39,045 nt of DNA from a virus. Positions within the stretch are counted from its first letter, which is position 1. The number at the start of each line of letters is the position of its first letter. The notes below the pieces were generated by a model that was not told the origin of the DNA, did no database searches, and saw only the letters and a program-made list of their open reading frames with translations. The stretch covers positions 1-39,045 of the IMG/VR virus record IMGVR_UViG_3300027842_000001; one strand, given 5' to 3'. The translations under genes were made by a program, and so were the position numbers. Positions 17,752 through 38,464 of this stretch are shown here, piece after piece.

Positions 17752-18327
17752 GTGTATTTGACGCCGCTGTACGCCAATCCGCGACGGCGCAGACGCCGCT
17801 ATTACCGGCGCTATCGTCGCAACCCCGAAGGGTTCGGCTTCGACGACAACCCGCGGCGGCGGCGCCGCTACTACTACCGACGACGGCGCAACCCGCAGCT
17901 TTTGGGCATCGACATGGGCGACGCCGGCGGCACGATCCTGGGCGCGATCGGCACGGCCTACGCGGATTCCGCGCTGGTCGGCCCGCTGGTCGGCCGCATG
18001 CTCGGCGCCGCGGGCAGCTTCAAGCCGGCCGTACAGGCCGTGCTCTCGGCCTTCGCGGTGCATTGGGGCTTGCGACGGCTCAACCCCGGTTGGGCTCGCG
18101 CGACCTCGGGCGGCGGCGCGCTGTACGCCGTGGTGGGCATCGCCAACACGATCGCCCCCGGCCTGGTGCCAATCACCATTGGCGTGCCGACGCAGCTCGC
18201 CGGGCTGCGCCCACTCGCCGCGTTGCAACCTCCCGCACCCGCGGCAGCAGCAGGCGGCGGCACGCAGGCGGTCAACACCGCCTCACCGACGACGGGTCTA
18301 CGGATCATGTCGCGGAACGGGCTGTAA
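17752..18327 (+). CDS. Arg-rich (NPRRRR/RRNP) N-terminus fused to a Gly/Ala-rich hydrophobic domain; probable virion membrane or core protein
   Basis: GTG 17752 with GGAGG 10 nt upstream; first gene of the plus-strand arm. Confidence 0.65.
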   Translation: MYLTPLYANPRRRRRRYYRRYRRNPEGFGFDDNPRRRRRYYYRRRRNPQLLGIDMGDAGGTILGAIGTAYADSALVGPLVGRMLGAAGSFKPAVQAVLSAFAVHWGLRRLNPGWARATSGGGALYAVVGIANTIAPGLVPITIGVPTQLAGLRPLAALQPPAPAAAAGGGTQAVNTASPTTGLRIMSRNGL

Positions 18328-18337
18328 GGGGGGTCCC

Positions 18338-19369
18338 GTGGCAGTACGAACAGTCCGAAGCGTCGCGGTAACCGACGTCTACAACTCGGGCGGCGGCATC
18401 GCTCACGAGCTCTCACCGCTGCCATTCGCAACCACGCGGATCGACTGGCAGATCGAGGCCAACCTCACCACCAGCGCCTCACCAGGCACGTCTCAGGATT
18501 GGCTCTGGCGGCTTATCAATGCGCTGTCGCTGAGCTCACCGCTCGGCAACCATCTCACCCTCGGCGACTTGCGCCCGCTGCACTTCGAAAACCGCCTGCG
18601 GTGGGGCGGCCAGTTCACCACCCCCGCGGCACCCGGCGCCTCGGCAACGGGCGTCGTGAAACACGCGATTTTGCGTTTCGATTGCGGCGTCAACCCGCTT
18701 GACCCGTGGGACCTCACCGGCGGCCTGCCGGCGCGGCTCGGCAATCTGTCGATGGCTGGCGGGTGGGCCGCGGCGACACAGCTCGGCTCGGGCTACACCG
18801 TCAACGCGGGCACGCTCCTGCGGACCAAGCTCTACGGCGTGCTGCCCGAGATGGACGGCGAGGCGATCCCGCGCGCCATTCCGGTGATGCAGACGTACCA
18901 GCCGCAACCCTCGAGCAACTCGGCGTCACTCGGCACGAGCTGGAACTTCCCGAAGGGCCATTTCCTGCACAGCATCGTCGTGATGCCGGCCGCGGGCGTG
19001 CGCCCCGCGGACAATCGCTCGGATACGGCGCTGCAAGACATTGGCATCGGCCTGCCCGTCGCGGGCAACCGCCAGCCGTACTACGACACGTGGTACTCGT
19101 TCAAGCAAGAGCAGCGCATCGTGTCGGTGGCGGAGGACGACGGCAACACCTTCGGCGTGCCGACGGTGGCGGCTGAGGGCGACGTCGGCGTAGGCATGCT
19201 GGCCGTCGCGCGACTGGCCGCGGGCGGAAATCCGCTCTACGGCATCGACGACCGCAACGCCGGCGAGGGCGACACGCAATTGCTCTTTGGCGTGAACAAC
19301 AACAGCCAGCTTTCGGTGTGGCTGCTCACACGCCACTACGACCTCAACCCCGCGGCAGGAGGCAGCTAA
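18338..19369 (+). CDS. Virion structural protein, candidate major capsid protein (343 aa)
   Basis: GTG 18338 after AAGGGGGG. Large, beta-rich-looking, low in charged runs; position at the head of the structural arm. Fold not determinable by eye. Confidence 0.55.
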   Translation: MAVRTVRSVAVTDVYNSGGGIAHELSPLPFATTRIDWQIEANLTTSASPGTSQDWLWRLINALSLSSPLGNHLTLGDLRPLHFENRLRWGGQFTTPAAPGASATGVVKHAILRFDCGVNPLDPWDLTGGLPARLGNLSMAGGWAAATQLGSGYTVNAGTLLRTKLYGVLPEMDGEAIPRAIPVMQTYQPQPSSNSASLGTSWNFPKGHFLHSIVVMPAAGVRPADNRSDTALQDIGIGLPVAGNRQPYYDTWYSFKQEQRIVSVAEDDGNTFGVPTVAAEGDVGVGMLAVARLAAGGNPLYGIDDRNAGEGDTQLLFGVNNNSQLSVWLLTRHYDLNPAAGGS

Positions 19370-19373
19370 AGCG

Positions 19374-19469
19374 ATGGCGACGCGCAAGCAGATAGCAGCG
19401 GCAAAGCGCAATATCAAAAAGGCGATCGCGGCCAACCGTCGCCGCGGCGGCCGACGTCGGAGGCGCTAA
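19374..19469 (+). CDS. Very basic mini-protein (31 aa, below the track cutoff)
   Basis: Hand translation: MATRKQIAAAKRNIKKAIAANRRRGGRRRRR. Confidence 0.4.
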   Translation: MATRKQIAAAKRNIKKAIAANRRRGGRRRRR

Positions 19470-19472
19470 GCG

Positions 19473-20306
19473 GTGGCGACGGGCGATCGACCACGCGCGC
19501 CGGATGGGCGCCGCGGCGGGCCTATCCCTGTCGGTGAACCTGCCGCGGAGGACCGCGACCAGGTGGCCGAGCTGGCCAGGCAGGCGGCCGAGCGCCGCCA
19601 GCGCGAGCTCGAAGAGCAGCAGGCCGCGGCCGAACCCGCGGGCGTGCCGCCGAGTGACGACCAGCGCCAGGCGATCGACGCGCTACGCGATCGCTCGGCC
19701 GAGCTGCGCGCACCAGCAGCTCGAGCGCTGCGCCGCCAGCCGGTCGCGATTGGCACGGTGTACGACGACGAGCGCGAGGACGTCGAGGACCTGCACGCGG
19801 ACGCCCGCGAGGCACGCCTCGACGAGCTCAAAGAGCGCGGCATCGTCGACCCCGCGCTCGAGCACGAATCGGCCGGCTTCGATCCCGAGCTGCCAGGCCT
19901 GCCCGGGCACGAGCTGTACGGCGTCTTTACGTGTCCGAATTGCGGAGCGCCTGTCGAACGGGCCTTCCCCGGCTACGTCGATTGGGACCTCGCCTCGCGC
20001 GACCTGGTCTGCCACCAGTGCGGCGGCCTGGTCAAACGTGGCGGCGCCGCGGCCGAAACGGAAGCCGAAGCCGAGCCCGAGACTGTGCAGACGTCTGCAC
20101 AGACGGCACAGAGCGCACAGACAGGCGAGGCGCTGCCTACCGGCGAACCTGGCACGTACAACCCGCCGCCGCTGAGCGCCGACGAACGCGCCGAGCTCGA
20201 GCAGCTCCGCCGCGAGCGTGCCGAACGTGAGGCGGCGGCCAGCTCGCCACCGCCACCCGAGCCAGCCGCGGAGCAGCAAACAACCGAAGAGCCGCCGAGC
20301 GGGTAG
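19473..20306 (+). CDS. Acidic coiled-coil protein with central zinc ribbon
   Basis: CPNCG...CHQCG; contains palindrome 20084-20101 plus a 9-bp tandem extension. Confidence 0.6.
   Translation: MATGDRPRAPDGRRGGPIPVGEPAAEDRDQVAELARQAAERRQRELEEQQAAAEPAGVPPSDDQRQAIDALRDRSAELRAPAARALRRQPVAIGTVYDDEREDVEDLHADAREARLDELKERGIVDPALEHESAGFDPELPGLPGHELYGVFTCPNCGAPVERAFPGYVDWDLASRDLVCHQCGGLVKRGGAAAETEAEAEPETVQTSAQTAQSAQTGEALPTGEPGTYNPPPLSADERAELEQLRRERAEREAAASSPPPPEPAAEQQTTEEPPSG
20084..20101. repeat. 18-bp palindrome, copy 2
   Basis: Exact; read as VQTSAQ; followed by GCACAGA x3 with 9-bp period (20097, 20106, 20115). Confidence 0.95.
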
Positions 20307-20315
20307 CGGGCCGCG

Positions 20316-21257
20316 GTGACGCAGCCAATAACGCCCGTACCGGGCACGCGGGACGAGCCCGCCTACGTTCTGCTCGACAAGGGCGACGTAGTGCGGGTGA
20401 TGAACCCGCAGAACCCGACCCCGGACACGAAGGGCGAGCCGCTCAACACCCGCGGCTATAACTCGCTGATAGTCGACCTGAACCCGGACCAAACGGCCGG
20501 GCCGACCTCAGTAACGGTGCTCGGCGCGCCAACGCCGGGCGGCCCGTGGCTCCAGGAAGTCGACCCGCAGGCCTTCCAGTCCGGCGTGTCCACTCAGAAG
20601 CGCTTTGTTGTTACGGGCATCTCGACGTACAACGCGGTCGCGCTAACCGCCCCGGTCGGCTGGACGGTCTGGTTTACGCCGTTCAACGCGGCATCGCAAA
20701 CCAACGTCCAGATCACCGGCACCACAACACAGAACCTCGCGCAGTACGGCGGCGTGGCGGTCGGGCCGTCGAACCCGCTCGACACACGGCCCAACGGCCC
20801 GGTCGACGTTTCTGACCGCGCGGCGCGGCTGCTCGGCGTCATTGCGTCGATTACGAACACGGTCCCCGACGACGTCATCGACCGCGCGGCGCGGCTGCTC
20901 GGCATCGCCTCGCTGGCTAAAAGCACGTGGAGCCAGGTCGGCACCAGCGCGGCCAACACCGCGCAGACGGTGACTCAGGCCGCGGCCGGTGCGGGCGTGC
21001 GCAACCTGGTAACGGGCCTGACGGTGAGCTGGTCGGGCGGCGCCCCGGCGGCCGGCACGAACGTGCAGGTCAAAGACGGCTCGACCGTCATATGGGACGA
21101 GTATCTCGGCCAGGCCGGCGGCACGCAGGGCTATGCGGATTTCGAATTTACGGCGCCGCTGCAAGGCACGGCCAACACCGCGTTATCGGTGACCATCGCC
21201 GCCGCGGGCGCGGGCGTGACCACCAAAGTGTCGGTACAGGGGCAAACGGGAGCGTAG
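20316..21257 (+). CDS. Virion structural protein (313 aa), candidate vertex/spike component
   Basis: Track ORF, Thr/Gly/Val-rich beta-type composition; internal 24-bp exact repeat encoding DRAARLLG. Confidence 0.65.
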   Translation: MTQPITPVPGTRDEPAYVLLDKGDVVRVMNPQNPTPDTKGEPLNTRGYNSLIVDLNPDQTAGPTSVTVLGAPTPGGPWLQEVDPQAFQSGVSTQKRFVVTGISTYNAVALTAPVGWTVWFTPFNAASQTNVQITGTTTQNLAQYGGVAVGPSNPLDTRPNGPVDVSDRAARLLGVIASITNTVPDDVIDRAARLLGIASLAKSTWSQVGTSAANTAQTVTQAAAGAGVRNLVTGLTVSWSGGAPAAGTNVQVKDGSTVIWDEYLGQAGGTQGYADFEFTAPLQGTANTALSVTIAAAGAGVTTKVSVQGQTGA

Positions 21258-21265
21258 GAGCAAAG

Positions 21266-21676
21266 ATGGCCAATCTCGACGTCGTCGACCGCATCGAAAA
21301 TGCCGACACCGGCACGCTCACGCTGGTGGTCAAAGACCGCGACAACGCCGAGGACCTCGGCGCGTACTACCACTACGCGGCCGTTCCACCAGCTCACGCA
21401 AACGTGAAACCCGACCAGTGGGCCGAACAGGTCGCCGCGCATGCGCTGGCGCTCGAGGCACGAGCTCGCGGCATCGAGCCACCCGCCCGCGCGCATCCCG
21501 AACCCGGCCAGCTCGGCGCCGCGCCCGCGGGCGAGCAGCTCGCCGACGAGGACCAGGCCGAGCTCGAGCAGCTCCGCGCGGCGCGTGCTTCGGCCGACCA
21601 GGTGGCGCGCGATCGCGCCGAGCTCGAGCAGCTCCGCGCCGAGCGCGCGGCGCACCAGGAGCAGCCGACGGCGTGA
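21266..21676 (+). CDS. Hypothetical protein (136 aa) with coiled-coil tail
   Basis: ATG 21266 with AGGAG 5 nt upstream; two AELEQLR repeats. Confidence 0.7.
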   Translation: MANLDVVDRIENADTGTLTLVVKDRDNAEDLGAYYHYAAVPPAHANVKPDQWAEQVAAHALALEARARGIEPPARAHPEPGQLGAAPAGEQLADEDQAELEQLRAARASADQVARDRAELEQLRAERAAHQEQPTA

Positions 21677-23475
21677 CGATGCTCGCGGGGCCGCAAGGTG
21701 GCGGGCCGCCACCGCCCGCGGCCAACACCGTAACGCTCGGGATCTTTCGCGCCGAGGACTACGGCGCGCACAGCATCCAGGCGGGCGCTACCGACGCCTC
21801 GGGAGGTATCAACATCGCGGCCAGCATCGCCGCGGCGCAGGGCGGCGGCCTGGTGATGCTCGACCCGGGCCTCACGTATCCGGTGCGGCGCACGGTGACG
21901 CTCCCCGCGAATGTCGAGCTCGCGATCCCGACGGGCACGGTGCTGCAAGCCGCGGCCGGCCTGGTGGGCGACGTCGTCACGGCGACCAATGCGGCGGGCG
22001 TCCGAATTTCGGGCGGCGGCACGATCGACGCCAACCGCGCCATAGGCACCACCGGCAACGGCGTCACGCTCACCGGCTGCACGGAGCCACAGGTCGAAGA
22101 GATCGCGATTATCAACGCCTGGCAGGATGACGTCGCGCTGGTCAACTGCGTTCGCCCGGTGCTCGACGTGTTTGTCGGCGCCTCGGGCCGCCACGGTCTG
22201 TATCACAGCGGGACCACGTTCGGCCGCGGCCAGGTCACCGCTCGAGACAACGGCCAGCGCATCGCGGGCCACGGCGTCGTGTTCGATGCCGCCTCGACTG
22301 ACAACTGCTACGGGCCGCTGGTGTCCACCGACTCGCGCGTCGGCGGCGCCAAAACGCAGCAATACGGCGTGTTCGAAGTACCCGCCTCCGGGTGCGATCG
22401 CAACACGTATGCACCGTCGGCGCTCGGCGGTAACGCCGTCGGCTCGCAATCGCTGGTGGGCGCGAGCTCGGGCCCGGTGGTGATTGCGCCGAACTCGATC
22501 AGCGCCGGCATGCTGGCCAACGGATCGGTAGGCGACGTCGCGATCGCCGCGGCGGGCCTGTCGAACTCGTCTCTAAACGCGACGGTCGCTCGAGCGAACC
22601 AGCTCATAAACGGCAATTTCCAGGTGTGGCAGCGCGGCACCGGCCCATTCAGCGCTAATGCCGCATACGGCCCCGACCGCTGGCAGATCGGGCTCGCTGG
22701 CAGCGACGCAATCACCGTTTCACGCGACACCACGCACGTTGACGTCGGAGCGACCTATGCGTGCCACGTGACATTCACGCTCGGCACGGGCGGCGGCGCG
22801 AGCGGCCTGTTCCAGTACCTCAAGGCGGGCGACGGCTACGCGCTGCCAGGCGAGCCATTCGCGGCGTCGCTGCGCGTGTATTGCGACACAGCCAACGCGG
22901 TACGCCTCTCGCTCACGTCGGACGGCACCGGCGGCGCGCCGGTGTATTCGGCGTTCAACAACGTCACGAACGGCTGGCAGACGCTCACGGTCGCCATTCC
23001 CGCGCTTCCCGCCAACGTGGGGCAACTGCAACTCTCGATCTACTTCGCGGCCTCGTGCAATGCGTGGTTCAACCATGCCTGCGTGGTGCAGGGCACCGTC
23101 GCCGCTAACGACGTGCCGCTGACACCCGCCGAGGACCTCGCGCGGTGTCTGCGCTATTACCAGCGCTTCGGCCCGAGCGCGCAGGTGTTTGCAGCAGGCC
23201 AGGCCTACAACACCAGCGGCGGCGCGATCCCGTTCCCACTCGTCGCGCCGATGGGCGGGAACCCCACGCTGACCGTATCGGCGCTCAGCGATGTCGGGTT
23301 GACCAATGCCGCGGGGAGTGGCGTCGCGTGTACCTCGCTCAGCATCGACGTGCCCCACAACTGGCACCCGCGCCTCAACGCCGGCCTCGGGAGCGCGCCG
23401 CTGGTGGCGGGCAACGCGACCCAACTCTGCTACATGTCGTCGAGCGTGTGGATCGCTTTCGAGTGGAATCCATGA
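21673..23475 (+). CDS. Receptor-binding protein: pectate-lyase-like beta-helix domain plus C-terminal fibre-type domain
   Basis: GTG 21673 overlaps the upstream TGA. N-terminal FRAEDYGA...GATDASGGINIAASIAAAQGGGLVMLDPG and Gly/Asn/Val rungs; C-terminal NGNFQVWQRGT...DRWQ motif, common in phage fibre tips. Confidence 0.8.
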   Translation: MTMLAGPQGGGPPPPAANTVTLGIFRAEDYGAHSIQAGATDASGGINIAASIAAAQGGGLVMLDPGLTYPVRRTVTLPANVELAIPTGTVLQAAAGLVGDVVTATNAAGVRISGGGTIDANRAIGTTGNGVTLTGCTEPQVEEIAIINAWQDDVALVNCVRPVLDVFVGASGRHGLYHSGTTFGRGQVTARDNGQRIAGHGVVFDAASTDNCYGPLVSTDSRVGGAKTQQYGVFEVPASGCDRNTYAPSALGGNAVGSQSLVGASSGPVVIAPNSISAGMLANGSVGDVAIAAAGLSNSSLNATVARANQLINGNFQVWQRGTGPFSANAAYGPDRWQIGLAGSDAITVSRDTTHVDVGATYACHVTFTLGTGGGASGLFQYLKAGDGYALPGEPFAASLRVYCDTANAVRLSLTSDGTGGAPVYSAFNNVTNGWQTLTVAIPALPANVGQLQLSIYFAASCNAWFNHACVVQGTVAANDVPLTPAEDLARCLRYYQRFGPSAQVFAAGQAYNTSGGAIPFPLVAPMGGNPTLTVSALSDVGLTNAAGSGVACTSLSIDVPHNWHPRLNAGLGSAPLVAGNATQLCYMSSSVWIAFEWNP

Positions 23476-23804
23476 CCGTCATTCCGACCGTCAACGCTGG
23501 CGCTGTCTCGATCACGTGTGGCAACGGCCACACGAACCCGCTCGCGATCAGCGCGATTACTCGGCCGCCCGCGGGCCTCGGCCCGCCGTTCGCGGTGCTG
23601 ACCGTTACGTGCCCGACGTGTGGCGAGTCGAGCTCGCATCCGGTGTCCGGCGGCGCCGACCAGGCGAGCGTACAGACGTTGTTTGTAACGGTTGTGGCGG
23701 CGAACGGCTGCCCGTGCGGCGCGCTCACCGCGGGCAAAGCCGCCGCGCTGGTGCGCTCTCATTTGCGATCGCACGCACAGCAGCTCGGGGGCACCTTCCC
23801 GTGA
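23472..23804 (+). CDS. Hypothetical Cys-containing protein (110 aa)
   Basis: ATGA overlap; CGNGH...CPTCG...CPCG. Confidence 0.6.
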   Translation: MTVIPTVNAGAVSITCGNGHTNPLAISAITRPPAGLGPPFAVLTVTCPTCGESSSHPVSGGADQASVQTLFVTVVAANGCPCGALTAGKAAALVRSHLRSHAQQLGGTFP

Positions 23805-24022
23805 GCTTTCAGGTCTGCTACGAAAACGACAACCGCGGCGTCGTCGCGTGGCAGTCGCCCGACTTCGGCGGCGCGGACATGGGCGCCGGCTACACCGTGG
23901 CCACGATCAACGACGACACGCTGTACGCCTGGCTCAACGCCAACGTCGGTTGGCCCCCCTACGCGGTGCTCAACGCCGACGGCCAGCACTTCACGCTCGC
24001 GCAGACGGTGGCCGGCTGGTGA
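23801..24022 (+). CDS. Hypothetical protein (73 aa)
   Basis: GTGA overlaps at both ends; balanced composition. Confidence 0.6.
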   Translation: MSFQVCYENDNRGVVAWQSPDFGGADMGAGYTVATINDDTLYAWLNANVGWPPYAVLNADGQHFTLAQTVAGW

Positions 24023-24594
24023 ACATTCAGGACGTCTACGACCAGGCCGCCAGCGTGGCACAGCAGAGCGGCGTCGATCCGTCGATCATCGCCACGATCG
24101 CCAGCACCGAATCGAACCTCGCGCTCGCCCCGCCGTTTACGCTCGGCATCACCACGCAGGCGAGCCGCGGCGGCGCGGGCAGCTCGGGCCAGACGCTCAG
24201 CTCGGGCTCGCCGTATGCCGGCACCAGCCAACCCGCGGCGTTTTGGGCCTACAACGACGGCGCCGAGGCGGCGATCGCTTTCGCGCAGTACATCGCGGCG
24301 TATCAGTCGGAGCTCGCGCCGCTGCTCAGCCAGGCCTCCGCGTTTTTCGATCCGTCGGGGCCAATCATCCACTCGAACTACTACGTCCCAACACCAGGCG
24401 GGACCTCGGCGGCCGATTACTACGGCCATTGGCAAGCCGTCGCGGCCTCTCTCGGGGGCGGGGGAGTGGCGATCGCGACGCAACCGCTCGGCTCGACGCG
24501 GGCAGGCCTGCCAACGTTCCTCGAAAACTGGCCGGTGCCGGTCCTGGTCGGCCTCGCCGCGGTGCTCACGTTATGGGCCTTGGGGGAGCTCTAA
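24019..24594 (+). CDS. Lytic transglycosylase (SLT-like) with C-terminal membrane anchor
   Basis: IASTESN (catalytic Glu-Ser), LGITTQ, FWAYNDGAEAA (AYNxG) in canonical order; C-terminal VPVLVGLAAVLTLWALG. Confidence 0.75.
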   Translation: MNIQDVYDQAASVAQQSGVDPSIIATIASTESNLALAPPFTLGITTQASRGGAGSSGQTLSSGSPYAGTSQPAAFWAYNDGAEAAIAFAQYIAAYQSELAPLLSQASAFFDPSGPIIHSNYYVPTPGGTSAADYYGHWQAVAASLGGGGVAIATQPLGSTRAGLPTFLENWPVPVLVGLAAVLTLWALGEL

Positions 24595-24677
24595 GCGCAT
24601 GCACCAGGTAAGCGCGCGTGTGACGGAGCGGCGCCTCGCGTTGTGGCTGCGCCCGATGGCGACGGGCATCGCGGGAC

Positions 24678-24695
24678 TGTGCAGACGTCTGCACA
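24678..24695. repeat. 18-bp palindrome, copy 3
   Basis: Exact; in the intergenic gap 24595-24747. Confidence 0.95.
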
Positions 24696-24747
24696 ACTCG
24701 CCGCGGCGCTCGAGGCGTGAGCGGCGCCGATCGAGGGAGATGGCGCG

Positions 24748-26897: not shown

Positions 26898-26903
26898 TCG
26901 CGC

Positions 26904-27680: not shown

Positions 27681-27683
27681 GGG

Positions 27684-28208: not shown

Positions 28209-28468
28209 CCGACCAGCAACTCGGCAGCGCGAACTACACGCCTGGCACGGGCGATTTCTCGGGTGACGATCTCAGCGCCGCCGGCGCACAGCTCCAATCG
28301 GGCGACACGGCCAAACTGGCGCTTACGTTCCCGCTGCCGATTAGCGGCATCCCCGCCGACGGCATCGCCGCGGTGCTAAGCCCGATCTTCGGCCTCTTCG
28401 GCCAGACGTTGCTCGGCGTCGACTTTGACGGTGACTCAACCCTGGTGCTGGTGTGGAGGGTCGGCTAA
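28205..28468 (+). CDS. Hypothetical protein (87 aa)
   Basis: ATGA overlap; track ORF. Confidence 0.6.
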   Translation: MTDQQLGSANYTPGTGDFSGDDLSAAGAQLQSGDTAKLALTFPLPISGIPADGIAAVLSPIFGLFGQTLLGVDFDGDSTLVLVWRVG

Positions 28469-28783
28469 ATGCCTGCGTTGCTGGCGCTCATTCCGGAGAT
28501 CATCGACGCGCTGGCGGCGTTCATCGGCGCGACCTGGTGGCAACTGCCGGTGCTGGTAACGCTCTTCAAAGTCGGCGCGCAAGTGACGGAGCCGATTCCG
28601 CAGCCAGCCGGCCAACAATCGCCGGTGCAACAGGCCGCCAGCGGCGCCGCACAGGCCGCCTCGGGCGTCGGCTCCGCGGTCGGTGGAACGGCTCAGGCGG
28701 TCGGCGGCTTCGGCCAGTTTCTCTCACAAAATCCCTGGCTGGTGGTCGGCGGCATCGTCGCCATATTCGTACTTCGGAGGTAA
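28469..28783 (+). CDS. Membrane protein (104 aa, two TM segments)
   Basis: ATG directly after the upstream TAA; hydrophobic N- and C-terminal segments. Confidence 0.65.
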   Translation: MPALLALIPEIIDALAAFIGATWWQLPVLVTLFKVGAQVTEPIPQPAGQQSPVQQAASGAAQAASGVGSAVGGTAQAVGGFGQFLSQNPWLVVGGIVAIFVLRR

Positions 28784-28786
28784 CGG

Positions 28787-28803
28787 TTTGAATGGCTATT
28801 AGC
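28787..28803 (+). repeat. AT-rich 17-mer TTTGAATGGCTATTAGC
   Basis: Read directly; contains ATG 28792. Confidence 0.85.
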
Positions 28804-29025
28804 GCTGCGCCCGCGCTCGAGCCGCTCCGACCGAAGGGGCTCGAGCTGACACACGTGTCGATCGTTCCCGAGCAGGGCGGCACCGGCCGTTTTTTGGTGA
28901 ATCGTCACTTTGTTGTGCGCGAGGCCGAAAGTAAGTACCCGCTCCAGGAGTCATGGGAGGGCCGCGGCTTCGGCGAGGCGCTCGAGCTGGTCCAGAAAAT
29001 CATGGCGATGGAGGGTCTGCGGTGA
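28792..29025 (+). CDS. Hypothetical protein (77 aa)
   Basis: ATG lies inside AT-rich 17-mer copy 28787-28803. Confidence 0.6.
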   Translation: MAISAAPALEPLRPKGLELTHVSIVPEQGGTGRFLVNRHFVVREAESKYPLQESWEGRGFGEALELVQKIMAMEGLR

Positions 29026-29240
29026 GCTCGTTGCCTCCGCCGGCCATGCCGCCAGGGCTATCCGCGGCGGACTACGCCGCAGCGCAGCAGCGAAATCAGG
29101 TGATGCTCGCGGGCGTGCTCGGCGGTGGTGCATTCATCGGCTACGAGCTGCTCGGCGGCATGCAGGGGGCGCTCATTGGCGCGGCTGGCGCGTACATCGG
29201 TCTAAAGCTGCTCGGCGATGCGATGTGGGGCAACGGCTGA
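29022..29240 (+). CDS. Gly-rich membrane protein (72 aa)
   Basis: GTG 29022 overlaps the upstream TGA; VMLAGVLGGGAFIGYELLGG... Confidence 0.55.
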   Translation: MSSLPPPAMPPGLSAADYAAAQQRNQVMLAGVLGGGAFIGYELLGGMQGALIGAAGAYIGLKLLGDAMWGNG

Positions 29241-29244
29241 ACTT

Positions 29245-30228
29245 GTGGGCCTGTTCGACTTCCTGCGGCCGAAGCGTCGACGACGGCGCCGAGCTGTGCA
29301 GACGTCTGCACAACGGCCGCGCTATCGACCTGGTGAACGCGCCAAGCGCTACCTCGAGCGGGTGGCCGAGCTCGAGGACCTCGAGCAGCGGCGACGTGCC
29401 CAAAAACGCACTACGCGGCCCGCTGGACCACGCGCCACACGCGACGACGATCCGACGGTCGAGATTCCGAAGAGCGTCCAGCGCGAAGCCGAGCGCCGAT
29501 TTCAGGCACGCCAGCGGGCCGAGCGCGAGGCGGCCGAGAAACGGCGCCGCCAGGAGATCCGCGAGCGCGAGCGGGCCGCGCGCGGTGAGGCGCGCATGAT
29601 GGCCAGGGCCGAGAAGGCGCGAGCTCGCGCGATCGACGCCTACATGGCGAACGGCGCCACCCGCGCCGAGGCCGAGCAGCTCTACGACCGCGAGCCGGAT
29701 TGGTCAACCTACGACTTCAACCCGCGGCGCCGCGGTGTACGGCATCGCAGCTGGCCACGTCGCCGTACAAACCCGCTGCCGCCCGTGGTGGGCGAGATCG
29801 CTAAGGACGTGCTGAAAGGTGGCCTAATCGCCGCGGCACAGGAAGAGGCCAAAGCCCGATGGCGCGCAGCTCGACGACGTCGCAATCCGGCGCGCCTCGA
29901 GCCGAACCACCCGGACGAAAAACTGCGGGACATGAGCCGTCGGTTTCACGGCCGACCCGATCAAATCCTGCACCTTGACGCGGACCAGCGCCGCCCGCCG
30001 CCGCAGCACGTCGTACTGATCGGCCACGAGCGGGCGACGGTCTATCGCACGCCGCGGAGCTCCGAGCGCTCAGGCGCCGATTGGGAGCACGAGGCGGGCG
30101 ATCGCGGCATGTTGCGGCGCAACGCCAGCGGGCGCCGGATCCTGGTCGCCGACGAGCGCGGCCGGGTGTATCTGCTACAGGGCAGCTCGTCGATGCGATT
30201 CGACCCCGACCAGGGGCTCGTCGGGTGA
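29245..30228 (+). CDS. Arg-rich RRNP-motif protein
   Basis: GTG 29245; palindrome 29295-29312 sits at codons 17-23. An alternative start near GTG 29361 would make the palindrome intergenic. Confidence 0.6.
   Translation: MGLFDFLRPKRRRRRRAVQTSAQRPRYRPGERAKRYLERVAELEDLEQRRRAQKRTTRPAGPRATRDDDPTVEIPKSVQREAERRFQARQRAEREAAEKRRRQEIRERERAARGEARMMARAEKARARAIDAYMANGATRAEAEQLYDREPDWSTYDFNPRRRGVRHRSWPRRRTNPLPPVVGEIAKDVLKGGLIAAAQEEAKARWRAARRRRNPARLEPNHPDEKLRDMSRRFHGRPDQILHLDADQRRPPPQHVVLIGHERATVYRTPRSSERSGADWEHEAGDRGMLRRNASGRRILVADERGRVYLLQGSSSMRFDPDQGLVG
29295..29312. repeat. 18-bp palindrome, copy 4
   Basis: Exact; 55 bp after the stop at 29240; read as VQTSAQ if the gene starts at 29245. Confidence 0.95.
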
Positions 30229-30244
30229 AAGGAGAGGCCACGCA

Positions 30245-30406
30245 ATGACATGGACACTTGAAGCCGCGGGGCACAAAGACGCCGACTATGACGAGGGCTA
30301 CGCCGAAGTCAAAGAGGCGCTGCGCGAGCTAGTGCGCAAACTCCGCGAAGCCGGCCACACCGTCAGCGTGCACACCGTCAACGACCAGGACGTCGAGGCG
30401 CAGTAG
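30245..30406 (+). CDS. Small acidic protein (53 aa, below the track cutoff)
   Basis: AAAGGAGAGG upstream of ATG 30245; hand translation MTWTLEAAGHKDADYDEGYAEVKEALRELVRKLREAGHTVSVHTVNDQDVEAQ. Confidence 0.5.
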   Translation: MTWTLEAAGHKDADYDEGYAEVKEALRELVRKLREAGHTVSVHTVNDQDVEAQ

Positions 30407-30417
30407 GCGAGGGGGCT

Positions 30418-31560
30418 ATGGCCAGCGCTGCCGAGATGCTCGACGAGATCCGCCGCCACTTCGCGGCGCACCCGTCGGGCATGGTGCAAGTGACGACCAT
30501 GACGCGGGCGACGCGCTACCGCTCGCCTGAGTGGTTCCGCGTCTCGAGCAAGGGCAACCTTCAAGTACGCCGCGGCCGAACGTGGGAGCAGATCTCGATG
30601 GGGGGTACGCCACTGGTCGGTATCCGCCTCTTCAACCCGCGCAAAAAGAAGCGCCGCGGGGCTGGCGAGTGGCAGCCGGACCTCTTCGGAGGCCGCGGCA
30701 TCGAGCGCCCCGACGCATTCGCGCCGGGCCTCAGTCGCGCCGAGCAGCTCGAGCTCGCCCGCGAAGAGATGCGCGCCACCGGCTCGCGCGACCTGTTCGA
30801 CTTCATGGCCGACCAGCCACCGCGGCGCAATCCGCGCTATGTGCTGCGCCTCGACGAGGATAACTACTGGCGCGCGTGGGACACGAAGCACAAGCGCTAC
30901 TCCCCTCACGTGCTGCAAATCGTGAGGCGTAAGGCATTCCGCCAGGTGAAGGAGCTCAACGCCGACGCCGAGCGCCCGCCTGAGCGCCGCTGGCTCGAGC
31001 ACAACCCGCGGCGGGTGACCTATCGGCAGGTGGTCGAGGCGTGGGACCGCGGCAACCGCGGCCGGGCGCGCCAGCTCGCGGAGCGGGTGACCGATCCCGC
31101 CGAGCGGCGGCTCGCCGAGCGGTTTCTCGAGTCACGGCGCGCCAACCCTGCGGAGCTCGAGCGCAACCCGCGGCCGAGCGACTACTCGCGCGAATCGGCC
31201 GAGCAACTGCGGCGGCGCCTCTACTTCTGGCGGCCACAAATCCGCGCGTACCGGGCCTCGGGTGACCCCGACGAGCAACTCGAGTCGATGGCGCGCACAG
31301 TAGAGCGCGAGCTCGCCCGTCGACGACGCAGCCGTCGGCCCAACCCCGCGGACACGCCCGAAATGCGCTACCAGCGGGCCATCGGCCACGGTGAGCGATT
31401 GGCGACGGCTCGGAAGGCTGCCGCGAACCCGGGCCGCGCTACGGGGCGCATGGCGCCGAATTGCCCCATGTGCGGCGCGCTGGTGCGCCTGCCGAATCCG
31501 ATCCCGCCGCGGGTGACATGCCACAACTGCGGCACTCCGTCGCTGGTGCGCCGTCCTTGA
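30418..31560 (+). CDS. Arg-rich RRNP-motif protein with C-terminal zinc ribbon
   Basis: Six or more Arg-flanked NP motifs; CPMCG...CHNCG. Confidence 0.7.
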   Translation: MASAAEMLDEIRRHFAAHPSGMVQVTTMTRATRYRSPEWFRVSSKGNLQVRRGRTWEQISMGGTPLVGIRLFNPRKKKRRGAGEWQPDLFGGRGIERPDAFAPGLSRAEQLELAREEMRATGSRDLFDFMADQPPRRNPRYVLRLDEDNYWRAWDTKHKRYSPHVLQIVRRKAFRQVKELNADAERPPERRWLEHNPRRVTYRQVVEAWDRGNRGRARQLAERVTDPAERRLAERFLESRRANPAELERNPRPSDYSRESAEQLRRRLYFWRPQIRAYRASGDPDEQLESMARTVERELARRRRSRRPNPADTPEMRYQRAIGHGERLATARKAAANPGRATGRMAPNCPMCGALVRLPNPIPPRVTCHNCGTPSLVRRP

Positions 31561-31604
31561 GGGCGGCCGATCGGCGCCCCGTGAGGGCGCGGGAGGGAGA
31601 TCCA

Positions 31605-31748
31605 ATGTCGCGCTATCTGACGTTTTCCCGATTGCTGGTGCTGGCGGCGCTCATAGTCGCCGTGCTGGCGGCGTTTCACGTGCCCGCGCCCGTCGACCTG
31701 GTGGCCTCAGCGCTGGCGCTGTATTTCGCCTCGCTCCTGGTGCCGTAA
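31605..31748 (+). CDS. Tiny membrane protein (47 aa, two TM segments)
   Basis: GGGAGGGAG upstream of ATG 31605; MSRYLTFSRLLVLAALIVAVLAAF... Confidence 0.5.
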   Translation: MSRYLTFSRLLVLAALIVAVLAAFHVPAPVDLVASALALYFASLLVP

Positions 31749-31756
31749 ACGCCCGC

Positions 31757-32119
31757 ATGTACCACGGTTTGACGATCGGCGCGTTTTTGGGGCTCTTGTG
31801 TGGCTTGTCCCCAATGCGACAAGTGAGGCGCAACCCCGACACCGCGACCGTGCTCCTGGTCGGCCTCGGCCTGCTGCTGCTGCTCCGATCGCGCGGCGCC
31901 CGACTGTTCGGCGCCTCGAGCAGCCCGGCGCCGCTCTTACCGCCGAGCTACTCAGGCTGGCCGAGTGTATTCCCGCAGATGGCCACCGAAGGCGCCGCGT
32001 GCACGACCAGCAACGGCCAGCCGGGTACGTGGCATCGCGTCGAGTTTGGCGCGGTGCAGGTTGGCGGCATTCCGCAGCAATGGATTTGCTGGCCGCGGGG
32101 GGTCCCGATCACCGTATGA
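31757..32119 (+). CDS. Membrane protein (120 aa)
   Basis: Two hydrophobic segments separated by RQVRRNP. Confidence 0.55.
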   Translation: MYHGLTIGAFLGLLCGLSPMRQVRRNPDTATVLLVGLGLLLLLRSRGARLFGASSSPAPLLPPSYSGWPSVFPQMATEGAACTTSNGQPGTWHRVEFGAVQVGGIPQQWICWPRGVPITV

Positions 32120-33081
32120 CCGACCCGGTGCGGCTGCTCGAGCTCGGCGCCGACATGCTGCGCTCGCGGCGCGGCGACCAGGACGCCCGCGGGCGACTGA
32201 TGCGCAACGCGCTACCGCTGGCGGCCGATTATCTGATACGCCCCGGCGCAGGGCGGCTACTCGAGCGCGGCCTCGAGACATTGCGCGACGTCGCCGCGGA
32301 GGAAGGCTGGCGGCTGCCGGGTGGGCTCGCGACCATCGGCGAGGGCGACCCGCTGCCGAATTACGAGCCGTTCGTCGAGCGCCTGGTCGCCGCCCCGTTC
32401 GGCTTCTACACGATCATGGGCGAGCCAGGCACGGGTAAAACCGTGCTCGCGTTGCGGCTGGCGCAGCGCATCGCCGAAGAGCACGGCTACCAGGTTGTCT
32501 CAGTCGGCGGCATGCACCCCGACGACCGGCGCAAGTGGAAAACCGACGAGTGGATCCAGCTCGAGGCGCCCGGCGCGTTCGTCAAAGCGATGGACGCCGT
32601 AGCCGAAACGATGGTGACCGCGCGTGTCCACCGCCACCGCCGCGAGCTCACCGGGCGGGTGATTCTGCTCGACGACGCGATTATGACCGCGCACATTTCC
32701 GCCAAACGTTTCAACCAGTCGCTTACACAGGCCTGGTCGATCTATCGGCATCTCGATTGGGTGGTGCTGCTCACTGCGCGCATGTTCCGCGCGCTAACGA
32801 CCATTGCCGAGAACGCCGACGCGCGATTCTTGAAACGGCCCGACTGGCAGCAACTCTCGAGCGAGCGCGACAAAGCGCGCTTTTGGTGGCGCGACGCCGA
32901 GGCAGCCTACAAGGGGCTGCGCCACTCTGCCGACTGGCAGACCCGCCCACGTGAGCGGGAATGGATCTACGTCCAGGCGCCCGGGCTGCGCTACACGGGC
33001 CTGATGCCGTACAGCACGCCGGAGCCACCGACGACGACGCTCGTCCTCGATCCCGTGCCACCCGATCGGGAGACGCTATGA
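32116..33081 (+). CDS. P-loop ATPase, candidate genome-packaging ATPase (FtsK/HerA-like or Zot-like)
   Basis: ATGA overlap. Walker A MGEPGTGKT, Walker B RVILLDDA. Flanked by small membrane proteins. Confidence 0.75.
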   Translation: MTDPVRLLELGADMLRSRRGDQDARGRLMRNALPLAADYLIRPGAGRLLERGLETLRDVAAEEGWRLPGGLATIGEGDPLPNYEPFVERLVAAPFGFYTIMGEPGTGKTVLALRLAQRIAEEHGYQVVSVGGMHPDDRRKWKTDEWIQLEAPGAFVKAMDAVAETMVTARVHRHRRELTGRVILLDDAIMTAHISAKRFNQSLTQAWSIYRHLDWVVLLTARMFRALTTIAENADARFLKRPDWQQLSSERDKARFWWRDAEAAYKGLRHSADWQTRPREREWIYVQAPGLRYTGLMPYSTPEPPTTTLVLDPVPPDRETL

Positions 33082-34289
33082 GCCCCGCGGCGCTGCTGGT
33101 GCTGGTCGCGCTCGGGTACTGGTACTTGTCGACGCGGCGTACCCGCCGCAGGCCTGCACGCAACCCGTACAACCCGCGACGGCGAAAAGGCGATCGCTGC
33201 TTTGCCTGCGGTCGGCCGCTCCGCACGGGTGACGTCCGCTGGCTCATGCCGACCGGGTCGGGGCCGCGGGTGGTGTTGTGCCAGTCGTGCGCCGACGAGC
33301 TCGTCGAGCGGCGCGAGGCACGCGGCGAAAGCGGGCCGGCACTGCGCCGACTCTCGAACCCGCGACGTCGTCGACCTGGTGCTGCTGGCCAGCTCGCGCT
33401 CCCCGAGACGCCGGCGGCCTACCCGGTGGTTCACGTGGCGGGCGGCGGCAAGCTGCCCAACCGCAAAAGGCAGCCGTTTTGGGTGTTCGCGCAATGGGCC
33501 GGCGTGAGCGCGAATGACTCGCGCTGGTTTACGCACGATCCGGTCGGCCGCGCTTTCTCGAGCTACGCCGAGGCGGCCGACGTCGCCCGCGACTTCGCAC
33601 GGCGCCAGGGCGGCGTGTTCGAGCCGTCGCGCGAGGCGCGCCACGAGCTGCTCAGGAACCGCAACCCGCGGCGCTTGTGCCGGTGCGGATCCGGGGCCCC
33701 GTGCAAAAACCCGTATACGCAGGCCTGCGCGCTGCCCGGTGGCCACGTCTACGATTTCACCGCGGGCGGGCGCTGTCAGTGTTGCGGACGCATGGCGCCG
33801 CGGCGCACCGTCGAGCTCGAGTCGCGAGCTGGTGAGCATGCGCGCTACGGCCGAACGTGCGCGGCGCGGTCGATCGGCACTACCAAACTGCGGACCAATC
33901 AGCTCGAGCACATGGAGCGCGAGGCGGAGCACCGATCGGCCCGCGAGGCGCACTACCGCGGCGCTGGTCGGCAGGCCTCGGGCATCGTGCGCCCGACATT
34001 CGCGCGGGGCTGGTCGGAGGCCGAAATCGTGGAGCTCGCGCGGCGGGTCGGGGAATCGCCATTCGAGCCTCACTGGTGGCTGTCGCAAACGGCAAACCTG
34101 GTGCCGGCGCATTACGAGCTGACGCCGCAGGGACGCCGCTACGTGCCAGCCACGGGCGAGTACCGGCGCTTTGTGCTCGAGGGTGGCCAGCGGACCAAAC
34201 GGCGCCGCGGCGCTGGCAGCTCGGCGCGATCGGCGCGGCCAGCTCGAGCTCGAGCCTACGCGCGACCTGGTGATGACCTCCCGTGGTGA
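33078..34289 (+). CDS. N-terminally anchored Arg-rich RRNP-motif protein with CxxC pairs
   Basis: ATGA overlap; LLVLVALGYWYL TM; ARNPYNPRRRKG, SNPRRRRPG, NRNPRRLCRCG. Confidence 0.7.
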   Translation: MSPAALLVLVALGYWYLSTRRTRRRPARNPYNPRRRKGDRCFACGRPLRTGDVRWLMPTGSGPRVVLCQSCADELVERREARGESGPALRRLSNPRRRRPGAAGQLALPETPAAYPVVHVAGGGKLPNRKRQPFWVFAQWAGVSANDSRWFTHDPVGRAFSSYAEAADVARDFARRQGGVFEPSREARHELLRNRNPRRLCRCGSGAPCKNPYTQACALPGGHVYDFTAGGRCQCCGRMAPRRTVELESRAGEHARYGRTCAARSIGTTKLRTNQLEHMEREAEHRSAREAHYRGAGRQASGIVRPTFARGWSEAEIVELARRVGESPFEPHWWLSQTANLVPAHYELTPQGRRYVPATGEYRRFVLEGGQRTKRRRGAGSSARSARPARARAYARPGDDLPW

Positions 34290-34292
34290 CCG

Positions 34293-35330
34293 ATGCCTGA
34301 GCGCTACTGGCTGACGTTCACGACGCGCCACCGCCACGGTCGGCCGACGCAAGAGCCGGTGTACTACCAGCGCGAGGGCGATCGCTGGCGGCTGTACTTC
34401 GGCAAGAGCGGGCGGCGCCGCGCCGTCGGCACCGAATCGGACGCCGCGGTGCGCTGGCAGGTCGACCTCGCCAAATCGGAGGGGCGCTTTGTACGGCACG
34501 AGCCCGACCAGGGCCGCATGTTCAACCCGCTAGTGCGCGGCTACTCCCGCGGGGCGATCGCCGCCAACATTCGGCGCGAGATCCACGCCGGCCGCGACCA
34601 GGACCAGGCCGTCGCGATCGCGCTGGCCACCGCCCGCCGCGCCTACCGCTCACGCCACCCGCGCGGCCGACTCCCCGCTCAGCTTCGGAGGAATCCGCCC
34701 ATGCACAACCCGCTTTATGGCGCCGAGGCCGCAAAGGTGATGCGCCGAATGGACCAGGCGCAGCGCGAGCTCGACCTCGCCTCACGCGAAGCCCGCGGGT
34801 CAGACGATCCCGAGGTACGGCACTACGCGCGCAAACGACGGGACCGGCTCATACGCGAGCTGGCCCGCTTGAGTCGCCGCCTGCATTGGGAGAACCCCGC
34901 GCGACGTCGCAACCCGGCGGAGATCGCCAAGCTACAGGCCGCCATGCTGCGCGAGGAAGCCCGCTACGACCGCACAGCGGACCTCTACCGCTACGACGAC
35001 CGCACGAGCGCCAGGGTGCGCGTGATGAAGGCGGCCGGCCAGCGCGATCGCGCGCAGAAAGCCGTTTACGACGCAATGCGCCGAGGCGCCAACCCCCGCC
35101 CGACCCGCGGCCCGCTCGACCGCCTCGAGGCCTACAGCGTGCGCTCGATGCGGCGCGCCGCTCGCGGAATCAGCGAGGTTCCCGAGAGGCATCGCGGCAT
35201 CTCCATGCGGGCGCTGGCGCGTCGGCGTCGACGACGCAACCCCAACCGTGGCGAGTGGATAGACCTCCTGGTGCCGCTGGCGTTCCTGGTGCTGCTGATT
35301 CGCGGCCGAACGATTCAAGTCGGCGCCTGA
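34293..35330 (+). CDS. Arg-rich RRNP-motif protein with C-terminal TM
   Basis: LRRNP, ARRRNP, RRRRRRNP; C-terminal WIDLLVPLAFLVLLI. Confidence 0.7.
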   Translation: MPERYWLTFTTRHRHGRPTQEPVYYQREGDRWRLYFGKSGRRRAVGTESDAAVRWQVDLAKSEGRFVRHEPDQGRMFNPLVRGYSRGAIAANIRREIHAGRDQDQAVAIALATARRAYRSRHPRGRLPAQLRRNPPMHNPLYGAEAAKVMRRMDQAQRELDLASREARGSDDPEVRHYARKRRDRLIRELARLSRRLHWENPARRRNPAEIAKLQAAMLREEARYDRTADLYRYDDRTSARVRVMKAAGQRDRAQKAVYDAMRRGANPRPTRGPLDRLEAYSVRSMRRAARGISEVPERHRGISMRALARRRRRRNPNRGEWIDLLVPLAFLVLLIRGRTIQVGA

Positions 35331-35333
35331 CTC

Positions 35334-35350
35334 GCTAATAGCTATTCAAA
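35334..35350 (-). repeat. AT-rich 17-mer (reverse complement TTTGAATAGCTATTAGC)
   Basis: Read directly; intergenic, just upstream of the dyad and the serine recombinase. Confidence 0.85.
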
Positions 35351-35370
35351 CTGTCACGCGATTGCAACGC

Positions 35371-38457: not shown

Positions 38458-38464
38458 CTGCACA
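38448..38464. repeat. Palindrome copy 7 (17 of 18; outer T replaced by C)
   Basis: 30 bp after the LAGLIDADG stop, 23 bp before the holin-like ATG. Confidence 0.9.

Follow-up and report, generated by a model that had tools for sequence, protein, structure and literature searches.

Here we ask why the dipeptide Asn-Pro (NP), accompanied by arginine, recurs throughout the structural and packaging arm of an uncultured phage, represented by IMG/VR virus record IMGVR_UViG_3300027842_000001 (39,045 bases, 70% G+C; this whole stretch is hereafter referred to as the window). A preliminary description of the window had listed ten Arg-Arg-Asn-Pro (RRNP) tetrapeptides. All ten were recovered in called genes as it had given them (genes are named by their first base): at 17815 and 17884 in the 17752 gene, 27339 and 27501 in the 26904 gene, 29878 in the 29296 gene, 30823 in the 30418 gene, 31826 in the 31757 gene, and 34686, 34905 and 35232 in the 34293 gene. 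The additional Arg-flanked sites that it named (NPRRRRRR, FNPRRRG, ARNPYNPRRRKG, SNPRRRRPG, NRNPRRL, ERNPRPS and RRPNPAD) were all found as well. Six-frame translation yields 11 RRNP, all on the + strand and between 17815 and 35232, with zero in the three reverse frames; the eleventh, at 27256, lies in an overlapping frame with a non-coding pattern of G+C at third (GC3, 0.68) and second (GC2, 0.81) codon positions. The Asn-Pro-capped Arg runs form a sequence signature that is real, conserved and not described before; the lineage of double jelly-roll phages in which it occurs is itself uncharacterised.

Asn-Pro at the ends of arginine runs

Chance was assessed by per-protein shuffles of the 25 right-arm proteins (5000 rounds). 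RRNP was expected 0.14 times against the 10 observed, NPRR 0.15 times against 7, RNP or NPR 2.1 times against 26, and NP itself 13.3 times against 50; none of the 5000 shuffles reached any of these counts. The reversed dipeptide PN, which served as a control, occurs 13 times against 13.4 expected, and other RRxP tetrapeptides are at expectation. The shuffled-composition control that the preliminary description had named therefore does not reproduce the RRNP counts. With NP kept as a unit and the rest shuffled, 74 Arg lie no more than three residues from an NP, against 35.3 expected (0/5000). When the shuffling left Arg runs and NP alike intact, 12 of the 22 runs of at least three Arg have an NP no more than one residue from an end, against 1.9 expected (0/5000). 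Thus, RRNP is real and far above chance, but the unit is not RRNP itself: it is a run of Arg with an Asn-Pro cap, in many cases one at each end (NP-Rn-NP), as in NP-RRRRRRYYRRYRR-NP, NP-ARRR-NP and NP-RRRGVRHRSWPRRRT-NP. NP is found on both sides of Arg runs, and the residue preceding it (position -1) is varied (R, A, D, F, H, S, Y, T, P, L, E or K). Arg stands at -1 to -3 in about half of the NP sites, and more than half are without Arg at -1.

The signal resides in seven proteins, the products of the 17752, 26904, 29218/29296, 30418, 31757, 33078 and 34293 open reading frames (ORFs). In these, NP is the top dipeptide outlier (32 against 4.2 expected, z = 13.5) and 32 of 56 Asn precede Pro; Ser-Pro (SP; 8 against 8.2) and Thr-Pro (TP; 8 against 6.8) are close to expectation. 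The remaining right-arm proteins contain 18 NP among 127 Asn. The left-arm control, comprising 36 replication and lysogeny proteins, is 10.4% Arg, with 17 of the 36 at 12% or more, and has 0 RRNP and 11 NP among 95 Asn (Fisher test against the 32 of 56 in the motif proteins, p = 4e-9).

Could the motif nevertheless be an artefact of composition or annotation, produced by Arg-rich, high-G+C ORFs in the wrong frame or by low-complexity sequence? The 70% G+C content would favour such an origin, as would the richness of wrong-frame ORFs in Arg and Pro and the position of the RRNP at 27256 in one of them. However, the shuffles, the PN control and the Arg-rich left arm all stand against it, the reverse frames are without a single RRNP, and the motif genes have coding GC3 (0.77–0.85) and ratios of nonsynonymous to synonymous substitution rates (dN/dS) well below 1 (0.2–0.47 against a relative). 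The motif genes are real genes under purifying selection, and we reject the artefact as extremely improbable.

The signal is also frame-specific. Within the block, AAYCC falls into codon phases in the ratio 50:10:5 (phase 0 in 50 of 65), and, as had been noted, the Arg codons and AAC/AAT vary between copies. Relatives spell the motif with CGG, CGA, CGT or AGG at -1, with AAC or AAT and with any CCN. Because the signal is in frame and its codons vary across genomes, the conserved entity is the peptide, in agreement with the preliminary description. A DNA-level motif (a packaging, KOPS-like or methylation site) is ruled out by the phase of AAYCC and by the codon differences between genomes.

The motif proteins and their relatives

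All genes from 17752 to 36862 are on the + strand and make up the structural and packaging arm of a membrane-type phage whose double jelly-roll capsid protein could be modelled with confidence (see below); the virion-arm setting proposed for the motif proteins is thus reasonable. Their genes occupy several kb, as had been estimated, although the figure is about 6.1 kb and not 5 kb. The proteins are 12–22% Arg with a net charge of +21 to +42, except for the 31757 ORF (7% Arg, +5), and carry 3–8 NP sites each, clustered in strongly basic segments. Several contain transmembrane (TM) segments or Cys4 ribbons, also in line with the preliminary description.

The 17752 gene (17752–18327, +), directly upstream of the capsid gene, encodes a 191-residue protein of net charge +21. 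It has a GTG start with GGAGG upstream, a GC3 of 0.84 and a dN/dS of 0.21 against the relative. The N-terminal arm of its product reads M-YLTPLYA-NP-R6YYRRYRR-NP-EGFGFDD-NP-R5YYYR4-NP, about half Arg with interspersed Tyr, and is followed by a Gly/Ala-rich hydrophobic (multi-TM) body with an RRLNPGWAR loop (NP codons at 17776, 17821, 17848, 17890 and 18082).

The 26904 gene (26904–27680, +; NP codons at 27345, 27366 and 27507) encodes a membrane-anchored protein of 258 residues and net charge +22, which continues after its TM segment as KRRRR-NP-RPILR-NP, an insert of about 45 residues, and RGRRR-NP-GKAKRAARRR. The insert is absent in the relative and is bracketed in the window by CGCAACCC direct repeats. 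The N-terminal domain and TM anchor are paralogous to those of the 24748 and 27684 products. The three neighbours (24748–25854, 26904–27680 and 27684–28208) share a domain of ~50 residues (GG[FV]P[VI]...QDP[ST]QGGTN.YGPGD...Y), and two of them also share a C-terminal anchor (GDPQ.W.KQLI.WLSA.SSIGHMPN followed by a TM segment); this paralogous membrane-protein family occurs in relatives L007 and L008 too.

For the third gene, a start at 29245 had been given. The true start is most likely the GTG at 29296, since GC3 of the preceding stretch (29218–29295) is only 0.58 and the JGI gene call begins there. The product (29296–30228, +; NP codons at 29719, 29770 and 29884) is soluble and about 22% Arg, and the longer 29218 ORF has a net charge of +33. 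It contains F-NP-RRRGVRHRSWPRRRT-NP and, right before a conserved C-terminal domain that is 54% identical to L008 3712 (E 5e-32), RRRR-NP-ARLEP. The GTG at 29296 falls inside a copy of the palindrome GTGCAGACGTCTGCAC (see below), the doubtful stretch being the first 26 codons of the 29218 ORF.

The 30418 gene (30418–31560, +) encodes an Arg-rich protein of 380 residues and net charge +34, with eight NP (codons at 30634, 30829, 31003, 31144, 31165, 31342, 31426 and 31495), a C-terminal Cys4 ribbon and a 130-residue module, bounded by CGCAAYCC repeats, that is missing in the relative. The 31757 ORF (31757–32119, +; NP at 31832) encodes a small membrane protein with MRQVRR-NP-DTATVLLVGLGLLLLL. 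Its first 65 codons have a GC3 of 0.86, and its 3' half (31950–32119) has a GC3 of 0.61 and a GC2 of 0.79; its true end or frame is uncertain, and it has no counterpart in L007.

The 33078 gene (33078–34289, +; NP codons at 33162, 33171, 33357, 33663 and 33708) encodes 403 residues of net charge +39. From the N terminus, it has a TM segment, RRRPAR-NP-Y-NP-RRRKG, a Cys4 ribbon module and S-NP-RRRRPG. Another module and RNR-NP-RRL come next, and the protein closes with a conserved domain that holds a further Cys cluster. The homologue in the relative (246 residues) is without the two middle modules, and CGCAACCCG direct repeats lie at both junctions. The product of the 34293 gene (34293–35330, +; 345 residues, net charge +42) has seven NP (codons at 34524, 34692, 34707, 34893, 34911, 35091 and 35238), three of them in RRNP, and a C-terminal TM segment after R6-NP. 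Its residues 79–121 (34524–34655) match phrog_2423, a 52-residue profile of unknown function, with an E value of 6e-15, and the domain begins at an NP. In the relative this domain forms the N terminus of a separate 103-residue protein; residues 78–137 are 75% identical to L007 11687. A homologue search with the 34293 protein found essentially none beyond its own genome.

The phrog_2423 domain is the sole family match among the motif proteins, for which sequence searches of Pfam, PHROGs, NCBIfam and the PDB returned nothing else; that they belong to no described family is borne out in these databases. BLAST detected no module sharing among different motif proteins, save for the non-basic N-terminal domain of the 24748, 26904 and 27684 products. 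Many copies of the motif flank TM segments, following them in the 26904 and 33078 products and preceding them in the 17752, 31757 and 34293 products. The remaining copies separate modules, among them the PHROG 2423 domain, zinc ribbons and small modules of beta/alpha type.

Motifs at the domain boundaries of such bead-on-a-string proteins, where modules come and go exactly, could mark processing sites. NP would then be cleaved (R|NP, x|NP or N|P by Asn cyclisation), splitting multi-domain precursors into their single domains and freeing short protamine-like Arg peptides in the manner of adenovirus pre-VII and pre-mu; cutting the 17752 arm at each NP would yield NPRRRRRRYYRRYRR and NPRRRRRYYYRRRR, and the half of sites with Arg at -1 to -3 resemble dibasic sites. 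X-Pro N termini resist aminopeptidases, and Asn-based self-cleavage operates in virus maturation (reovirus mu1, N42-P43) and in FlhB/YscU (NPTH). However, we found no maturation protease: the right arm is without a Pfam protease, and the sole peptidase folds are of lysin type, NlpC/P60 in the window and M23 in the relative, which are not one conserved family. Residue -1 is highly variable, an NPTH or NPGP context is not conserved, spontaneous Asn-Pro cleavage is slow, and many sites border directly on TM segments or fall within the loop of a zinc ribbon (LVRLPNPIPPRV), positions at which cleavage would serve little purpose. We consider processing an unlikely function of the motif.

Useful relatives were obtained solely through protein-cluster look-ups. 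No relative was found among cultured phages (megablast and tblastn against 50,697 phage records), in IMG/VR scans with the ATPase, the capsid protein and alignment A2, or in GTDB genomes; metagenome scans gave first none and then two short contigs. The look-ups recovered a 39.2-kb relative (capsid protein 86% and ATPase 80% identical) and more distant fragments (ATPase 74% and 50%; capsid protein 52–57% and 27%), the ATPase at 50% being that of L008. Motif positions, the conservation of which the preliminary description had made decisive, are kept: 19 of the 21 alignable NP sites of the window are NP in the close relative and one more is shifted by one residue, at a column identity of 64%. All five NP of the 17752 product are retained in L006, all three of the 29296 product in L007 8007, and the five alignable sites of the 30418 product in L007 9247, three of them also in L009 930. 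In every relative seen, the gene upstream of the capsid gene encodes a few residues, NP-Rn-NP, a short spacer, NP-Rn-NP and a Gly/Ala-rich hydrophobic body; this arm recurs in L006, L011, L013, L015, L016 and L017, down to 27% capsid identity. The TM–TM loop RRLNPGWAR reads RKVSPAFAR, RRVSPAWAR or RKLSPGFAR in three relatives, a change of one NP to SP. In the relative with the 50%-identical ATPase, Arg-rich proteins adjoining the ATPase carry RNP, RPNP and RANP sites, one of them just before the conserved C-terminal domain held in common with the 29218 product. The fragment with the 74%-identical ATPase (L009 4683–7625) adjoins genes for a PAS-histidine kinase and a Wzy_C (O-antigen ligase-like) protein, neighbours that suggest an integrated copy in a bacterial chromosome.

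A similar architecture occurs outside this family. An IMG/VR scan for NP-RRR...RR-NP gave 14 loci, mostly out-of-frame noise. In L024, a 41-kb IMG/VR contig, a 212-residue protein (3823–4461, -) directly upstream of beta-rich ORFs has six NP-capped Arg runs and then a hydrophobic body, and the adjoining 770-residue protein (4560–6872, -) has eight [KR][KR]xNP sites; L025, a 79-kb IMG/VR contig, encodes NPRRRYRR five times, again followed by a hydrophobic body. The L024 proteins have no homology to window proteins by BLASTP, and PHROGs and Pfam searches of L019 and L024 were uninformative. The neighbours in L024 are small beta-rich ORFs, a DnaJ-domain protein and a transglutaminase-like membrane protein.

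The position and identity of NP are thus kept while its flanks drift, a behaviour typical of linear motifs. A docking function, in which a single factor of the virus or host (for example the packaging ATPase, the base of the capsid protein or an assembly chaperone) would recognise Arg-flanked NP and recruit its bearers to the assembly site or procapsid, would also agree with the restriction of the motif to a coherent structural and packaging gene set, with none in the Arg-rich left arm, and with its multivalency. By contrast, the flanks are too degenerate for a specific pocket, the constant features being NP and nearby positive charge; the motif stands on both sides of Arg runs, in both orientations; and its presence in viral contigs with no detectable homology to the window would need the same receptor to have evolved repeatedly. 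Such a function seems doubtful to us.

Comparison of the window with the 39.2-kb relative shows differences of entire modules, each bounded by NP motifs, and CGCAAYCC direct repeats flank all three module indels in the window. This in-frame octamer (R-N-P) could itself be what is kept, as micro-homology for the in-frame insertion, deletion or swapping of domains among these genes, which evolve fast, with the peptide a tolerated by-product. There are 15 copies of CGCAAYCC on the + strand but two on the - strand; the Arg codon at -1 of NP is CGC 12 times out of 14, compared with 51% elsewhere (p = 0.007); and CGT-CGC-AAY-CC occurs four times, the RRNP at 17815, 27501, 29878 and 34905 sharing the 11-mer CGTCGCAAYCC. 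However, codons vary freely across genomes while the peptide stays, 12 of the 15 octamers are in codon phase 0 (with the phases of AAYCC as given above), and the more than half of NP sites that have no Arg at -1 are without the octamer. Linkers tolerate indels in any case, so that indel ends at linkers are expected. We regard retention for recombination as decidedly improbable. As a separate observation, the -2 Arg codon before CGC-AAY is CGC in 0 of 8 cases, versus 15 of 36 RR pairs elsewhere; the codon bias around CGC-AAY is not seen in the relatives, and intragenomic copying, a codon-pair effect or chance are candidate causes.

Possible roles of the capped segments

We tentatively favour, at slightly less than an even chance, a reading by analogy with SPKK/SPRR motifs and protamines, in which NP would form a turn or cap a helix, and so mark off both the Arg segments, as binders of polyanions, and the linkers between domains. 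An Asx-Pro turn, either a helix N-cap or a C-cap followed by Pro, would isolate the Arg run at one or both ends and leave a short, conformationally defined and protease-resistant basic segment. Such segments may serve as polyanion-binding arms and inter-domain linkers in virion or packaging proteins. The soluble zinc-ribbon proteins that surround the packaging ATPase would probably bind the 38.9-kb DNA; likely ligands of the juxtamembrane copies, and of the arm on the membrane protein next to the capsid gene, would be acidic lipid head groups, the capsid base or DNA. In its action the motif would then resemble both the spaced Arg clusters of protamines and, with Asn instead of Ser, the (S/T)-P-(K/R)-(K/R) turns in sperm histones and in the hepatitis B core tail.

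Several features fit a cap. Asn as N-cap with Pro at N1, and Asn or Gly as C-cap followed by Pro, are classic helix boundary signals, and some NP contexts in the motif proteins resemble helix starts (NPAEIAKLQ, NPAELER, NPADTPE and NPDTATV). The bracketing of Arg runs, the location in linkers and beside membranes, the specificity for NP with its one N-to-S swap and the extreme charge fit as well, as does the independent occurrence of the architecture in L024 and L025. Whole domains would be gained and lost at NP caps because the caps lie in linkers, and the swap of NP for SP in the loop of three relatives is consistent with a turn capped by a side chain, for which Asn and Ser could stand in for each other.

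The following points weigh against this reading. The motif proteins have too few homologues for structure prediction. Neither SP nor TP is enriched, so a generic rule of any turn-former plus Pro fails and Asn is specifically favoured. By the positive-inside rule, membrane-anchored Arg tails would be cytoplasmic; in the assembly model of PRD1, the cytoplasmic side of the membrane becomes the capsid-facing side, and not necessarily the DNA-facing one, which makes DNA a less likely ligand there. For the membrane-anchored copies, the DNA condensation at the inner membrane face that the preliminary description had proposed is therefore weakened, and bridging to lipid or capsid is at least as likely. 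Finally, the motif is not needed for the generic job, since it is missing from both reference membrane phages: VP11 of Thermus phage P23-77, the most thoroughly studied basic minor capsid protein from a phage with a membrane, has no NP, and PRD1 has no basic-flanked NP. VP11 is highly basic (pI 10.63); its gene lies in the structural module of this internal-membrane phage, close to that of the packaging ATPase, and the protein ranks among the capsid components (PMC12429598). Unlike the window proteins, it has 0 NP among 4 Asn and no TM body. The P23-77 genome as a whole encodes 16 NP among 107 Asn, one of them basic-flanked (KRNPS in ORF 31); its capsid is built of two single jelly-roll proteins, whereas that of the window phage is a double jelly roll, and P23-77 was not matched by the window in the phage sequence searches.

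The SPKK/SPRR motifs of sperm histones H1 and H2B and the SPRRR repeats of the hepatitis B core C-terminal domain are turn motifs in basic tails; DNA-binding turns of the SPKK/SPRR type contact the minor groove. As there, a capping residue and Pro stand beside at least two basic residues, are repeated in very basic tails and would delimit basic clusters by a turn, and multiple copies cluster in basic segments (3–8 per protein, with Arg near NP at 74 against 35.3 expected). The likeness is one of analogy only: Asn takes the place of Ser/Thr, with SP and TP at expectation, so that the sites are not (S/T)-P-(K/R)-(K/R); phosphoregulation is not possible; the cap often stands at both ends of a run; and the carriers are phage membrane and multi-domain proteins.

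Protamines, in the account of them given in PMC3073880, consist of Arg stretches with neutral residues between. The window proteins share with them and with adenovirus VII and mu the alternation of Arg stretches and short neutral spacers, and the 17752 arm shares with mammalian protamine P1 the interspersion of Tyr among Arg. Proteins of the protamine or VII/mu kind are small, consist mostly of Arg and are packaged together with the genome, and their precursor is cleaved by a protease of the virus. Among the motif proteins, a protamine composition is approached only in the first 50 residues of the 17752 product, the motif proteins as wholes being 12–22% Arg. Adenovirus belongs to the same double jelly-roll capsid lineage as the window phage. 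By contrast with protamines and adenovirus VII and mu, the motif proteins have folded domains, TM segments and zinc ribbons; Pfam, NCBIfam and PDB searches showed no homology, and no viral protease was found. We know of no bacterial double jelly-roll phage with core-condensing proteins. A bolder proposal is that this membrane phage has an adenovirus-like basic core, in which NP-bracketed Arg cassettes, cut out or displayed in protamine fashion, would condense the genome, with NP as a processing or recognition mark and the R-N-P code doubling as a domain-shuffling joint. We give it little weight.

Other short signals were considered. A Tat (twin-arginine translocation) signal peptide, with S/T-R-R-x-F-L-K at the N terminus followed by a hydrophobic region and AxA, is rejected, as most NP sites are internal, C-terminal or after a TM segment and none has an RRxFLK context. 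The self-cleaving Asn-Pro motifs of FlhB/YscU (NPTH) and 2A (NPGP, in the context D(V/I)ExNPGP) are rejected too, with neither NPTH nor NPGP present in the window and the one NPTH, in L007 11687, being NPLY in the window. Arginine-rich motifs such as those of lambda N and human immunodeficiency virus (HIV) Rev and Tat are single copies on specific RNA hairpins, with binding that depends on a defined conformation; they too are short Arg-rich segments, but only the window motif is defined by NP brackets.

The phage lineage and the meaning of the signature

The window is a complete, circularly assembled genome of a temperate, membrane-type phage, uncultured and from soil. Bases 1–127 and 38919–39045 form an exact 127-bp terminal direct repeat, an overlap that implies a circularly assembled genome of 38,918 bp, and independent JGI (39,038 bp) and ENA (39,059 bp) assemblies are circular permutations of it; an NCBI fragment is also available. 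The major capsid protein (18338–19369, +), itself without an Arg-flanked motif, was modelled by AlphaFold2 with alignment A1 (30 homologues) at a predicted local distance difference test (pLDDT) score of 90 and a predicted TM-score of 0.89; from the single sequence, pLDDT was only 32. Foldseek matched the model to the major capsid protein of Sulfolobus turreted icosahedral virus (STIV; 2bbd, E 1e-17) and to P3 of PRD1 (E 1e-13, TM-score 0.72), and matches in BFVD were to STIV, Bacillus phage Wip1 and Gluconobacter phage GC1. The family of this capsid protein includes about 90 homologous cluster representatives. The putative packaging ATPase (32116–33081, +), a P-loop protein with generic AAA Pfam matches just below or near the cut-off, is without any NP (0 of 4 Asn precede Pro). 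The arm also encodes a beta-helix spike-like protein and C-terminally anchored membrane proteins, and ends with a large serine recombinase (35417–36862, +). The capsid fold, together with the large number of small TM proteins, makes an internal membrane a reasonable deduction.

The opposite arm encodes a DnaC/IstB-like loader, an N6/N4 methyltransferase, an NlpC/P60 hydrolase and a short (216-residue) tyrosine recombinase (4850–5500, -). Two recombinases thus occur in one 39-kb genome, the tyrosine recombinase adjoining a possible GIY-YIG protein (4428–4853). The acidic, coiled-coil-like products of 19473–20306 and 21266–21676 share an AELEQLR(R/A)ERA segment, the first also having a Cys4 ribbon; they may be scaffold-like or counter-ion partners of the basic proteins.

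A 16-bp perfect palindrome, GTGCAGACGTCTGCAC (mostly as TGTGCAGACGTCTGCACA), occurs in seven exact copies, against 0.04 expected (15946–15961, 20085–20100, 24679–24694, 29296–29311, 37018–37033, 37819–37834 and 38448–38463). Several copies are intergenic or at gene starts, two are intragenic and read VQTSAQ, and their flanks are not conserved. The palindrome is found at non-homologous places in L006, L007 and L009 and not in L008, and is possibly an operator for a dimeric regulator. In relatives it sometimes stands beside RRNP; as its flanks are unconserved and most motif sites are distant from it, we reject it as a mobile carrier of the motif and treat it as a separate feature.

The window phage shares with Tectiviridae (PRD1) and STIV a double jelly-roll capsid fold and a P-loop ATPase in the structural arm. 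As with gene XX (P20) of PRD1, a small membrane protein gene, here 17752, lies directly upstream of the capsid gene, and a membrane-anchored transglycosylase-like protein and a spike-like beta-helix protein are also present. Tectiviridae, however, have linear genomes of ~15 kb with inverted terminal repeats and a protein-primed family B polymerase, whereas the window is 38.9 kb and circular, with two recombinases and a DnaC/IstB-like loader. Pfam scans of its larger ORFs, which did not cover every small one, found no polymerase, and the searches of phage records showed no sequence similarity to members of the Tectiviridae. Cultured double jelly-roll phage genomes are about 9–18 kb, far below 38.9 kb, which is thus large for a bacterial phage of this kind.

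The general principle of basic arms with turn-forming spacers is already familiar, and the signature is a variation on it and not a new kind of system. Basic nucleic-acid- or membrane-binding arms are common in viruses; a literature search on RRNP/NPRRR and on Arg-rich proteins of double jelly-roll phages returned nothing relevant, and we found no described case of an Asn-Pro cap conserved across a viral lineage. Carriers of the motif are known from metagenomes alone, and NP-Rn-NP beside a hydrophobic body, upstream of a capsid gene, offers a simple signature by which otherwise unannotatable proteins of uncultured membrane-type phages can be found. It also prompts several questions: by what means such viruses neutralise a genome of 39 kb or anchor the membrane to the capsid, and whether the preference for Asn instead of Ser reflects chemical stability or conformation. 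As the motif coincides with domain indels, it provides a small, clean system in which to study the in-frame exchange of modules. If an adenovirus-like basic core were true, it would be the first phage 'protamine' system, together with a short linear motif that defines the lineage.

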